A stretch of 64,000 bases of DNA from Eledone cirrhosa (Eukaryota): NCBI GenBank assembly GCA_964016885.1, contig OZ024745.1:40114001-40178000 (forward strand), read 5' to 3'. Below are positions 4,312-64,000 of the stretch, piece by piece. The stretch's first letter is position 1. Each line of letters begins with the position of its first letter. The notes under the pieces are model-generated. The model was not told the origin of the DNA, searched no databases, and saw only the letters and a list, made by a program, of their open reading frames with translations. Made by a program: the position numbers and the translations under genes.

Positions 4312-4363
4312 TACACACAGGCACACACATATCACACACACAAACACGCACGCACACACACGT

Positions 4364-4401
<38 letters not shown>

Positions 4402-4608
4402 CGTTTCTGAATTTGTTTAGCAAGATTTTTTATCTGAAAACGTGTGTTGAACCCGATATTGTTATGCTTTGGGGTGTCATGTTGCCAATAAGAAACACAC
4501 GCACCAGTTTCTACACTCCATTTATTATAAATTAAATTCATAAATTTAAAAATTTATAAATTTCCGGTTGGTTGGTTGGTTCCATAACCGGACGGTTGTT
4601 CATATATT

Positions 4609-4651
4609 GTCAAAGTTCTTTCGTCACACATTCTCTGACCTCTTCAGTGAC
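4609..4651 (-). ncRNA. Minimal type I hammerhead in the family A 3' repeat (degenerate twin at 9337-9379 +)
   Basis: Minus strand: GTCA-CTGAAGA-g-GTCA gagaatgtg TGAC-GAAA-G aa C-TT-TGAC. The plus-strand twin has CTTAAGA. Confidence 0.75.
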
Positions 4652-5659
4652 TGGGGATTCTTTTCTTTGTCTTTGTGCCTCTCCTTTGTTCTGTCGTACG
4701 CCATCTTGTTTTGTGTGTGCGTTGCGTGCTTAGTTTGCGCATGTGTTACATCCGGGTGTCTGTGTGTGTTTATATTTCTTTGTTTATTTACATGTTACTG
4801 ATTGGTTGGTTGTTCTATATGTCTGTGTGGTTTCATTTTATACTTAATTGTGAGTTGTGATGTTGCTATTCCATTCATGTTTTCTATTTAATTATGGTTG
4901 GAGTTCATTTATGTTTATTGCCTCTGTGATTTGTCTAAACAATGCGTCTTTTCTGTGAGTAGATTCTATTTTTATTTCTATGTTCTCTAATTTGCCCTTA
5001 TGTTCTATTTTAGCATGTTGGTGGAGTATTGATGATTCTTGTTTATCTTGAAGTTCTCGCCAGTGTTCATTTAACCGTTCTCCTATACTACGAGCTGTCT
5101 CACCTGTGTACACTATATTCGTATCTTTACATTGTCCTTCATTACATCTTATGCTATATACTCAATTTCTAGTTTAACAGTTAATATGGGGGATTAGTTT
5201 ACAGATTATGCATTTCTTATCTATACAAGGAGGTCTTTGAAAAGGGTATGTATTGCTAATAAGTGTTTTTATGGATGTACCTGGTCTTTCTACTATCTTA
5301 ATATTAAGTTTGTTTATCTAGGGCCCTTCTAAATTTGTAAGCTAATTCACCTCTAGGGTTGTATTGATGAACATTACACTCTGGTATATATTGCTATAAT
5401 ACCATGAGTTATTCTATTAAGCTTATTCCTAGTTCTTTCTATTCTACTCCAAAATTTGCTCCTATACAAGGGGCAGGTCCCATTTGTATCATTATTTCCA
5501 ATGTTTTCCCATTTGGTTATGCTTCCTCTATATACTCTGATTTTATCTCACTGATTGTAACCAGAGAACTGCATACGGTGGATGAAGTGTTTTATGTGTC
5601 TCTCTAGTTCTTTGGGGTTGCACATGCGGGACACGTTTCTCAACACCCGTACACCATCA

Positions 5660-40002: not shown

Positions 40003-40597
40003 TCTGTATACATGTGTGTATGTACGTATAAGTACTTATGTTTAAGTATCAGACTTAATTTCATGTTTTCCATTTATCGGTTTCGGTACAGCCACCGTTG
40101 CTCGTTTGTATATATATATATACATACTACTGTACGTCTGTATACATATATGTATGTACGTGTACATATTATATTTGAGTAGAAGCCGTACTAAGAGTGG
40201 GAAATGAAATTTCGTTTGCTTTTTTCAGTTTATCGTTTTCGGTGCACCCTGCCGATTAACCCACTCCATATGCAAATTAGGCTGCTCACCCGTTAATATG
40301 CATAAGGAAAGTATATACTTTCGGACATTCAACTATCTGGCAGGAAGGTATACGTTACTGACAAGAGCTAACAAGCTTGAAACTAGTACAGCGTTACTTT
40401 GTTAGTGTTGAACAAACGAGCAACGGTGGTTGCTGGACACTACGGTTTAATACGGGATGTTTGTTTACAAACACACCGAGCATTATAATAAATGTTTGGT
40501 GAATCCATACGTACATATATATATGTGTGCATGTATGTATATATATATATACATACTACTGTACGTCTGTATACATATATGTATATATGTATACATA

Positions 40598-40682
<85 letters not shown>

Positions 40683-41020
40683 AAACTATACATCGTTCCT
40701 GTGTCAGTGTTGAAAAAAAGGTGACGTGGTTGCCTAAACACTGTACGGCGGAATTCGGGCTGTTTGTTTGTCTACAAACAAACAAACCGAACATTATAAT
40801 AAATGTTCGGTTAACCGATACGTTCATATATATATATATATGTGCATGTATGTATATATATACATACTACTGTACGTCTGTATACATATATGTATGTACG
40901 CATACATACATACATACTTACATTTAAGTAAGTGCCGTACTAAGAGTGAGAAATGAAATTTCGTTTCATTTAATTCCATTTATCGTATTCGGTGCGCCCA
41001 GCCGACTGAACTCACTCGAT

Positions 41021-41028
41021 ATGCAAAT
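41021..41028 (+). promoter_or_regulatory. Octamer motif ATGCAAAT, conserved in each complete repeat unit (also 40270 and 41451)
   Basis: Exact POU octamer at the same offset in three diverged units; function is inferred only. Confidence 0.4.
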
Positions 41029-41524
41029 TAGGCTGCTCAGCCGTTAATATGATTAAGTAAAGTATATACTTTCAGACGTTCAACCATCTGGCAGGAAGGT
41101 ATACGTTGCTGGTGATAGCTAATAAGCTTGAAACTAGAACAGCGTTCCTTTGTCAGTGTTGAAAAAACGAGCAACGATGGTTAATAGACACTACGGCTTA
41201 ATACGGGTTGTTTGTTTACAAACACACTGCGCATTATAATAAATGTTCGGTGAATCCATACGTACATATATATATGTGTGCATGTATGTATATATATATA
41301 TACATACTACTGTACGTATGTATACATATATGTGTGTACGTGTACATACTTATATTTAAGTAACAGCCGTACTAAGAGTGGGAAATGAAATTTCGTTTCC
41401 TTTTTTCCGTATATCGTTTTGTGTGCACCCGGCCGATTAACCCACTCGATATGCAAATTGGGCTAGTCAGCCGTTAATATGCATAAGGTAAGTATATACG
41501 TTCAACAAACTGGCAGGAAGGTAT

Positions 41525-41567
41525 ACGTTGCTGACGATAGCTAATAAGTTTGAAACTAGTACAGCTT
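41525..41567 (+). ncRNA. Minimal type I hammerhead, intact core
   Basis: ACGTTG-CTGACGA-tAGCT aata AGTTt-GAAA-C ta G-TA-CAGCt (consensus CAGCGT). Palindromic ACTAGT stem III; predicted cleavage after GUA at 41561. Confidence 0.8.
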
Positions 41568-41900
41568 TCTTTTGTCAGTGTTGAACAAACGAGCAACGAT
41601 GGTTGCTAGACACTACGGCTTAATACGAGATGTTTGTTTACAAACACACCGAACATTATAATAAATGTTCGGCGAATCCATACGTACATATATATGTGTG
41701 CATGTATGTATATATATATATATATATATATATACTTATTTTTGAAAGCGGCTGAACGCCTTCGTCTATTATGATGTCAGAAAATGTATATATTTACATA
41801 CTACTGTACGTCTGTATACAAATATGTATGTACGTGTACATACTTATATTTAAGTAACAACCGTACTAAGAGTGGGAAATGAAATTTCGTTTTATGTTTT

Positions 41901-41998
<98 letters not shown>

Positions 41999-42009
41999 AA
42001 ATATGATAA

Positions 42010-42294
42010 TAATGGAGCTGCGGCGCTGCAAAAGGGTTACATATGAAAAAGTTTGTCCTCATCAGTGGCCATCCAACCGTCGTAGGCATTTCGTCGCATT
42101 AAAGGCCATATACCTCAGGTTAGTGCAACTAACGGCTAAAAAAAAGTCGTTGGGACACGTAAATAAAGGGGACGCTAGGGTAAACAAACAAAATGGTTTA
42201 AGCAGCAGAAAGAGAGGAAGAAGGAAACAAGTCCCAGATTTCTATGAATATAAATTCGGTGGAATCGTGAACGAGAGAATAAAGACCATCAAAC

Positions 42295-42297
<3 letters not shown>
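42010..42297. repeat. Copy of the interspersed repeat also found at 60510-60990 and 61970-63123
   Basis: Shared gtcc(c)tcatcagtg...atttcgtcgcattaaa...atatacctcagg...gggacacgtaaataaagggg...aataaagaccatcaaacctg. Confidence 0.75.
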
Positions 42298-43055
<758 letters not shown>

Positions 43056-48689: not shown

Positions 48690-49319
48690 GTTATTCCGGG
48701 TTGAATCGGAGGTAACCACAGTAAGTAATGTACTCAATACATAGCAGAGTATAACAGTTTTAATATAGATGAGATTATACAGGACTAGAACTGTTTCATT
48801 CATTAGAAATCATCAGGAATCTGGGTATCAAAAAGTAAATATGGTATTTATAGGTTTCTACAAGTGGTAGGAGAGGGTGGGGAGTGGGATGGGTGCAGGT
48901 CATTGGTTGATAGAAAAGGGAATTCATTAAAAGCTAATTCTACAAAGGTATAGTTTATTTTTATTTTTATTTATATTTATTTATGTTTTTAGAGTAAGAA
49001 AGGCAGACAGAATTCTATAAACAGGTTCCGGATGGCATACCATTCCTTGTCAATAAGTTTCTCTTAAGCTAACAGATGTCTATAAAATCAGTGGGGGGTC
49101 AGTCATGGTCGATAGAATTAAAGAAAAGGGAGATTCTTTAAAAGCTAAAGTCATTAAGGTTCTACTAAGTGACAAAGGTCTAGAGAATTCTGCAGACAGA
49201 TTCAAAATACTGAGTGCATATCTTACTATTATCTTCGAACTTCTCTTAAACTAATCAACTATATGCCAAAAATCAACAGACACATTCACAAAAAAACAAA
49301 AAAACAAAAAAACAAAAAA

Positions 49320-54228: not shown

Positions 54229-54946
<718 letters not shown>

Positions 54947-63123: not shown

Positions 63124-63176
<53 letters not shown>

Positions 63177-63177
<1 letters not shown>

Positions 63178-64000
63178 CGGCGATGAATTAGTTTAGCGAG
63201 GTTTTTTATATGAAATCATGTGTCGAAACAAATATTGTTATACTTGGGGAGGGTCATATTTGTGTAATATTGCCAGAATTAATAACAGAACACACTCACT
63301 GTTTGGTTGGTTTTCGCTTCTCGCTGTCTTTTATATCTGCGATGTAACTTACTCGGTCCTCAATGTTGCCATTGACTGACCGACGGTCAAAAATAATACA
63401 GATACAATATCGACACAAACACATATATATAGTTTACATAATGTACATAAATCTTTCGTTGCACATCTGCAACATCGTCAGTGGTGTTATATATTTTTTT
63501 TCCTCCTGTTGTGTTGTATTTCTACGCCATTTTTTATTCAGTCTGTCTATATATTTATTTATTTATTTGCTTGTTTGTTTAATTTATTTTGCCTTCTTTG
63601 CGCATGCGTTTGCGTGTGTGTATAGTGTTATGTTTGCTGTGTGACTAGTGTGTATAGTGTTGTGTTTGCTGGGTGACTAGTGTGTGTTTATGTGCTTGTT
63701 GTTATTGTGCTTGTGTATGTATTTATTTATCTTATTTTATTTACTTATTTATACTTCTCTTAGGTCAGTGTTGTTTGTTTGGGTGTTGTTGTTGTTCCAC
63801 TCATTCTTTCTGTTTAGCTTTGGTCTTCTAATTTCTATTTCACTGGCCTCTCTGATTTGCCTATCTGCTGGGTCATTCCTATGTTTAGATATTATTCTAA
63901 TTTCTATGTTGTCTATGTTACCGTCAGGTTGTTGTCTAGCATCTTCGTATAGTACTGACCCGTTTTTTCGTCCTTTTAGTTCCCCCCAGTGTTGGTCTAT
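63177..64000 (-). mobile_element. 3' end of a family A-related PLE (runs off the window)
   Basis: Minus strand from 64000 encodes IDQHWGELKGRKNGSVLYEDA...IDNIEIRIISKHRNDPADRQIREASEIEIRRPKLNRKNEWN, homologous to 8908-9112. The 3' UTR matches 54525-54907. Confidence 0.85.

Follow-up and report, generated by a model that had tools for sequence, protein, structure and literature searches.

The 64,000-nucleotide window analysed here (Eledone cirrhosa, GenBank assembly GCA_964016885.1, contig OZ024745.1, positions 40,114,001 to 40,178,000 of the forward strand) carries, between its positions 40111 and 41908, copies of a short non-coding repeat with a type I hammerhead ribozyme motif, here called family R1. 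We consider it probable that R1 is a non-LTR (long terminal repeat) retrozyme, likely with its own promoter of the small nuclear RNA (snRNA) type, whose transcripts are predicted to be cleaved as dimers and which is likely copied into (AT)n sequence by a Neptune-type Penelope-like element (PLE) acting in trans.

A dispersed family of probable hammerhead retrozymes

R1 is spread over many contigs of the 3.0-Gb genome. A first look gave 2,491 candidates, 40 of which were scored, and the exact intact-core pattern matched 24,910 times genome-wide as against 0 matches in the reversed control. At least four subfamilies are visible. With a generic hammerhead pattern there were 174,466 matches (19,012 in the control), an excess of about 155,000 cores genome-wide. 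The sequence-only reading of this DNA had proposed a retrozyme, and the identity is borne out by a type I hammerhead with a conserved core in short, low-GC tandem units, which occur as dimers to multimers and look non-coding on inspection and in tblastn comparisons limited to PLE proteins. The accompanying label of a satellite does not fit, as R1 is dispersed and mostly has one or two units per arm. Among 121 sampled R1 runs, at loci chosen by a full-length match or an intact hammerhead, 96 exceed one unit and 13 exceed two; arrays reach seven or more units in R1 and about 25 in its sister family R2.

R2, with units of 466-468 bp and about 62% identity to R1, came from a pattern in which the octamer ATGCAAAT described below was not required. 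This pattern matched 5,795 times, 96 of the first 100 matches being R2, and the octamer is kept in this family. Another pattern, running from octamer to hammerhead and built without R1 and R2, gave 1,632 matches against 4 in the control and yielded families R3-R6. Family R7, a 311-bp hammerhead tandem (loci L356-L358), has a different palindromic stem III and carries a block resembling a proximal sequence element (PSE) and a TATA box, with no octamer; it shares the pairing of one long with one short end that is set out below.

The R1 locus

Tandem Repeats Finder called a 422-bp period at 40778-41726, and six pieces align to the natural unit (40111-40233, 40234-40607, 40680-40983, 40984-41414, 41415-41724 and 41787-41908). 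The claim that the locus holds about four tandem units of 420-440 bp agrees with this period and with the three full hammerheads and one truncated hammerhead, but the locus is not one homogeneous array: it comprises at least two insertions with (TA)n between them. Positions 41725-41786, within the second insertion, consist of an expanded (TA)n stretch together with an unrelated insert. The subfamily type of this insertion changes from older to young inside a unit, between unit positions 94 and 113, an interval that covers the predicted transcription start; this is one case only. The features of the locus are as follows (window positions).

40111..40602, + strand: insertion 1, a tail fragment and one unit, with the family's short 3' end into (TA)n
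40680..41908, + strand: insertion 2, a 5'-truncated unit of the older type (O1), a chimeric unit and a unit of the young type (Y), with a degenerate long 3' end into (TA)n
40270..40277, + strand: octamer of unit 1
41021..41028, + strand: octamer of the chimeric unit
41451..41458, + strand: octamer of the young unit, the motif as in host U6 promoters and with similar TATA spacing
41466..41479, + strand: putative PSE-like block, in the register of the host U1/U2 block at -56 to -58
40285-40298 and 41036-41049, + strand: equivalents of the PSE-like block in the other units
41493..41499, + strand: TATA-like box, 43 nt past the T that precedes the octamer
40312-40318 and 41063-41069, + strand: equivalents of the TATA-like box
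41523, + strand: transcription start predicted by the model for the young unit (other units, 41093 and 40342)
41525..41567, + strand: type I hammerhead with intact core and palindromic stem III, predicted cut after 41561, one private change each in stems I and II
41103..41145, + strand: hammerhead with two core positions broken
40352..40394, + strand: hammerhead with one core position broken and a stem I mismatch
40680..40696, + strand: 3' half of a 5'-truncated hammerhead
41354..41414, + strand: "tail" of about 60 nt with a hairpin, bounded by the short 3' end at 41353 and the long 3' end at 41414
41568..41680, + strand: hairpin-rich body, in which the ATAATA-loop stem and the GTTTGT/ACAAAC stem vary pairwise between subfamilies (by eye)

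Hammerhead motif

The full hammerheads of the window have their cores at 40358, 41109 and 41531, and a 5'-truncated one lies at 40680. As had been stated, the copy at 41525 is the only one with a fully intact core (41531); the core at 40358 reads CTGACAA, and that at 41109 reads CTGGTGA with GAA at the cut triplet. In the 41531 copy, stem I has a mismatch and stem II a wobble; by itself this copy forms no hammerhead fold, unlike the near-typical copy L006, which folds with stems I and II. The cut site lies 147 nt into the R1 unit.

Stems I and II covary, with 6 of 11 pairs changed on both sides among nine R1 and R2 copies; as these are related sequences, the number of independent events is small. 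A typical unit, when folded as a circle, shows strong structure (z -8.3 for the sense and -6.0 for the antisense strand; 25 shuffles) and forms both stems. From the covarying stems we conclude that the hammerhead is real, and its self-cleavage is predicted.

The motif had been described as a minimal type I hammerhead. By the definition in PMC4209133, the minimal form has no helix III or loop 3 and a long helix II. The R1 motif has a helix I of 6 bp, a helix II of 4 bp and a helix III of 2 bp with a palindromic loop, and is instead a canonical metazoan type I hammerhead, a form expected to work as a dimer (PMC4209133). The covariance-model check that had been suggested for it did not support the motif: Rfam scans gave no hammerhead match, only AT-repeat microRNA noise.

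snRNA-type promoter layout

The exact octamer ATGCAAAT, reported in the sequence-only reading at about 110-120 nt upstream of the cleavage site, is found at 40270, 41021 and 41451, that is, 118, 118 and 110 nt before the predicted cut. The two motifs said to follow it in each unit are less regular: of the three units, one has exact GGCTGCTCAGCC and two have ATGCATAA, and both the older subfamily and R2 carry another sequence in place of ATGCATAA. Octamer matches in the whole window (7 versus 6.4 expected) are not over-represented, so that any significance of the motif has to come from comparison across families and with host promoters. Nor does the octamer, once inserted, exceed other subfamily-invariant columns in conservation: the value is 0.995 compared with about 0.993 for those columns (207 private changes in 30,656 positions), which is expected for copies that are dead after insertion.

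In the host, the octamer or a variant with one mismatch stands at -77 to -79, with a TATA box at -30, in three distinct U6 promoters and in one U6atac locus out of eight; this layout is missing from the remaining U6 and U6atac rows viewed, which look like pseudogenes. The spacing from octamer to TATA is 47-49 nt in host U6 versus 43 nt in the window. A proximal octamer is missing from nine distinct host U1/U2 promoters, which have in common a block (-56 to -58) and, near -32, a TATA-like box. Trained on these nine promoters only, a composite promoter model has its maximum at octamer+17 in 12 of the 16 representatives of the elements; the rank is first of 614 positions in seven of the 16 and within the top four in 12. 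The start that the model calls lies mostly at octamer +73 to +75, often at a conserved GC|AG, 39-47 nt before the cleavage site.

The model was compared with 300 shuffles per sequence under one rule for all. The score was reached by 2, 4 and 18 shuffles for the three window copies, by one each for R1-M and R1-O, by 6 for R3 and by none for R4-R6. R7, which was found without the octamer criterion and is thus out of sample, also gave 0 of 300, and seven other hammerhead contexts gave between 23 and 295. The PSE register and the composite score fit in R1 and R3-R7; the stand-alone PSE score is strong only in R4-R7 (5-15 bits).

The earlier proposal of an snRNA-type promoter therefore stands for the layout, which is that of host U1, U2, U6 and U6atac, but the octamer appears as an accessory and not as the core. 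The common core of the predicted promoter is the PSE-like block with the TATA-like box. The labels octamer, PSE and SNAPc follow general usage and PMC1761439.

Most host snRNA promoters also share a CTCCCT motif near -255 (L286, L287, L288, L348, L306-L308, L326 and L336-L346). In the R6 copy L266, a CTCCCT-containing motif seen far upstream of host U1, U2 and U6 lies 35 nt upstream of the octamer. Two tandem octamer-like modules stand upstream of the hammerhead in R4 and in one R6 copy (L252, L274-L281 and L269). The host snRNA promoters would be useful for expression tools in this animal, and we found no description of them in the literature searched.

Insertion ends and Penelope-like elements

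At 20 of 25 junction rows the element ends at one fixed base followed by (AT)n, and the fixed loose end recurs in public contigs (runs X1 and X4); runs X5 and X6, from organisms B and C, gave 1 and 6 contigs at low depth and do not enter this result. Upstream of this base there is a second fixed end, at a distance of about 56 nt in R1 and 70-75 nt in R2, and the two-end pattern is also seen in R3, R4 and R7. Neither fixed 3' end coincides with the cut site. The tail at 41354..41414 likely sits between two start sites of reverse transcription.

Among 148 merged stretches we counted 68 head-to-head junctions, of which 47 join a long to a short end, two join two long ends, none joins two short ends and 19 have an unclassifiable end. 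The excess of long-short pairs is strong (47 of 49 classifiable junctions, p about 2e-12, one of the long-short cases being a local duplicate) and is a mark of PLE-type insertion. The arms of an insertion share private variants. The 5' truncations (128 ends in R1 and 40 in R2) fall throughout the unit and do not cluster at the cut site or the predicted start.

Mobilisation of the PLE type, as had been suggested, is supported by the fixed 3' ends into (AT)n, the optional tail, the ragged 5' ends and the inverted arms. Published PLE insertions show partial tandems and an inverted arm, often have a tail at just one end and are biased towards (TA)n (PMC8557442); two internal reverse transcriptase (RT) starts are also described, with both strands cleaved and extended (PMC11167929). 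The Eledone genome carries several PLE families with RT and GIY-YIG domains and the CxxC linker, which are of the Neptune type by the criterion of PMC8557442. The resident Neptune-type PLEs also terminate in (AT)n at two positions and have this target in common with R1. The short end of PLE family B closely resembles the long end of R1; we regard family B as a candidate partner only.

At L055, L072 and L245, the hammerhead elements have inserted into (TA)n tails of PLEs and vice versa, forming compound loci. Two long Neptune-type frames, at L061 and L063, run for 938 and 1,096 codons from stop to stop, the former with both pseudo-LTRs (pLTRs).

Proposed mechanism

Judging from the promoter layout, transcription would begin in a SNAPc-dependent manner 39-47 nt before the cut site. 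RNA polymerase II (Pol II) seems somewhat more likely than RNA polymerase III (Pol III) to start it, and the PSE register, the shorter octamer-TATA spacing and the negative score of the U6-type block favour Pol II. Dimer cleavage would trim a short leader and free cut-to-cut monomers, which may circularise as in the retrozymes of PMC7229834. A Neptune-type PLE protein would then cut both (AT)n strands and prime two complementary DNAs, about 60 nt apart, at the two ends.

Since the promoter sits immediately 3' of the long end, a daughter copy inherits it only if copying runs a full unit across the hammerhead. Many insertions do cross the unit junction and the hammerhead and thus include the promoter. 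Its inheritance across a full unit would require a circle or an uncleaved multimer as template, with little to choose between the two, and through either the upstream promoter would be passed on.

A wider version of this mechanism can be put forward tentatively. It is possible, though doubtful, that the superfamily captured an external snRNA promoter of the host, and that a hammerhead circle and a PLE dimer, its two RTs about 60 nt apart and rolling round the circle, build both arms at a double-strand cut in (AT)n.

Several results speak against parts of the proposed mechanism. R2 fails the U1/U2 model (rank 69 of 614; 255 of 300 shuffles). Taken by itself, the PSE term contributes about 0 bits in R1 and falls below zero in R2 and R3, compared with 7.5-19 in left-out host U1/U2 promoters. 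The shape of the model was picked after the alignment had been seen, the families are related to one another, and R3-R6 were selected on the octamer. The octamer is absent from R7 and pairs with a downstream arm in folds, a second possible cause of its retention. It is also changed at three positions, all A to G, in a young R2 sublineage (L171/L172 and L196-L202) with 69 near-identical units at 7 loci, in head-to-head arrays of which the longest have about 25 units; this means either that a source lacking the octamer was transcribed or that several insertions came from one template. A hint of Pol III comes from the lack of any run of four or more T between the predicted start and the long end in R1-R4 (joint post-hoc p about 9e-4).

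The remaining points of this kind concern cleavage and copying. Among nine frog retrozyme dimers, one was cleaved in vitro (10.64898/2026.07.22.740005), and a PLE studied in vitro could do without the hammerhead and used mainly unprocessed RNA as its template (PMC11167929). None of the roughly seven PLE families sampled (from 150 scored of 10,597 candidates) shares the R1 unit sequence or the octamer, and 50 GIY-YIG loci show no likeness to the R1 unit beyond nested copies and low-complexity matches. One array shows variation of period 3, and a period-2 pattern was also seen, which points to expansion at the DNA level after insertion; array homogeneity can therefore not separate a circle from an uncleaved multimer as template.

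Alternative explanations

The alternative that survives best, although we hold it unlikely, is the same element transcribed by Pol III from a U6-type promoter. Transcripts would mostly end at the T-run of the long end, and only leaky read-through would give daughters that bear a promoter. A proximal octamer with a TATA box is indeed the layout of host U6 and U6atac and is absent from U1/U2; a T5-T10 run stands at the long end in R1, R2, R3 and R4 with no T4 or longer run before it, the post-octamer block of R2 is like that of U6 by eye, and the schistosome hammerhead repeat uses Pol III (PMC6765202). However, a post-octamer model trained on U6 is negative in 18 of 19 element rows (left-out U6, 0.5-12.6), and the octamer-TATA spacing is mostly 3-5 nt below that of U6. 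R1 insertions pass the T6 run, and inheritance of the promoter would need read-through of T6 and T4. T-rich ends are moreover found in autonomous PLEs.

It is quite unlikely that the unit is instead the pLTR of an unsampled autonomous PLE whose open reading frame (ORF) was lost, an origin already proposed for the retrozymes of frogs, the promoter being that of the PLE. This view is compatible with the mechanism proposed above and differs on origin only. In frogs, 21 PLEs match retrozyme families at their termini (10.64898/2026.07.22.740005); in Eledone, R1 has its terminal likeness to PLE family B, and the sampled share of PLE diversity is small. The 50 GIY-YIG loci described above nevertheless show no such similarity, and the sampled hammerhead contexts of the PLE type have CCAAT/TATA-type or other upstream sequences with no octamer, on which the snRNA model failed. 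No PLE frame continues any tested element locus, and the tblastn matches are five neighbouring fragments.

We also find it quite unlikely that R1 is a promoterless retrozyme expressed by read-through, as proposed in the review PMC7761336, with the octamer region an RNA hairpin or an inherited relic and the likeness to snRNA promoters incidental. The octamer does pair with a downstream arm in R1, R2 and R3, the octamer-less sublineage has spread with three changes that retain G-U pairing, and R1 has only a weak PSE term, R2 none. Yet none of the 11 pairs of the octamer hairpin is changed on both sides, a mismatch persists within the octamer, and R4 has tandem octamer modules with no matching arm. 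The octamer, PSE-like block, TATA box and start context also keep the spacing of host snRNA promoters across otherwise diverged families.

Finally, an ordinary satellite or a DNA element resembling a Helitron or a miniature inverted-repeat transposable element, with a hammerhead by chance, would suit the hairpin-rich folding of both strands and the negative Rfam scans, but is largely refuted by the absence of control matches to the intact-core pattern, by the compensatory changes in stems I and II, and by the fixed 3' ends, ragged 5' ends and long-short rule.

Relation to known elements

The promoter of newt satellite 2 reportedly includes an octamer and a PSE. Like that repeat (cited in PMC2220036 and PMC6765202), R1 is a tandem hammerhead repeat with an internal promoter that is predicted to be of the snRNA type. 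Newt satellite 2 belongs to another phylum and is transcribed by Pol II, the likely polymerase of R1 being suggested by promoter layout, and the two are likened by analogy and not by sequence.

The metazoan non-LTR retrozymes of coral, mussel and axolotl (PMC7229834) resemble R1 in their non-coding, low-GC units of 300-470 bp, which form dimers to multimers, in the canonical type I hammerhead with a weak palindromic helix III, in the coexistence of PLEs, and in a structured circle that allows the hammerhead fold. Unlike them, R1 has an snRNA-type promoter layout and mapped insertion ends; expression and circles were shown for those retrozymes and are predicted for R1. The accessible text of PMC7229834 mentions no cephalopod, and a 2020 review (PMC7761336) states that animal retrozymes seem promoterless. 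Their dependence on PLEs has been proposed in PMC7229834 and in the preprint 10.64898/2026.07.22.740005, the accessible part of which mentions no promoter, octamer, tail or molluscs.

R1 shares with the Neptune and Poseidon PLEs (PMC8557442, PMC11167929, PMC4209133) partial tandems, an inverted arm, a tail at one end, two internal RT starts, AT-rich or (TA)n targets and hammerheads. It differs from them in that R1 and R2 have no ORF, a tail of about 56-75 nt versus 30-40 nt, and upstream sequence of the snRNA type and not the CCAAT/TATA type, and there is no pLTR homology to the sampled host PLEs. In the SINE-like (short interspersed element) Sm-alpha repeats of Schistosoma (PMC6765202), a promoter likewise precedes the hammerhead, and tandem units are needed for promoter inheritance; unlike Sm-alpha, which is reported to use Pol III, R1 has a promoter that resembles the external snRNA-gene type. 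A recent annotation of octopus repeats (PMC13282606) leaves hammerheads unmentioned in the accessible main text. The literature searched, mostly the main text of open papers, contained no mention of an snRNA promoter in invertebrate retrozymes, nor of families R1-R7.

The promoter as read against host U1, U2 and U6 gives a precise predicted start site. It would extend the isolated case of newt satellite 2 to an invertebrate superfamily. A tail confined to one end was already known; with the pairing of one long and one short end it becomes a near-strict rule, which constrains the mechanism of PLE integration and would fit two primings, one per target strand. The genome-wide excess of hammerhead cores suggests that these elements supply mobile promoter motifs in large numbers. 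If the captured-promoter superfamily were true, an snRNA promoter would be a general and overlooked part of animal retrozymes, newt satellite 2 included, and the genome would hold tens of thousands of mobile SNAPc/POU sites.

Other observations

The private substitutions of R1 are rich in transversions (57 of 207 are transitions), an unusually flat spectrum for an animal repeat. An ADAR footprint was considered and rejected: A>G and T>C changes numbered 27 versus 9 before overlapping loci were merged, and 22 versus 16 and 11 versus 10 afterwards. The triple A>G change in one lineage is an anecdote left after that reading fell. A spliceosomal intron round the hammerhead (donor 41488, acceptor 41578) was likewise discarded, the donor being found in the young subfamily only and no such joint appearing in four contig sets.

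Elsewhere in the window, a direct duplication of about 130 bp lies downstream of the array (42290-42420 and 42800-42930). The 3' end of a Penelope/Poseidon-type PLE occupies 4340-5161 on the - strand, with a GIY-YIG-like remnant (4892-5161), a hammerhead (4613-4647) and an (AT)n end. Another hammerhead-bearing, pLTR-like family has two copies, at 54396-54910 (+ strand) and 63170-63800 (- strand), one of them with an inverted arm, and no octamer upstream. The hammerhead core at 48788-48816 (- strand) belongs to R8, a very common family whose upstream CCAAT and TATA motifs have an mRNA-type layout.

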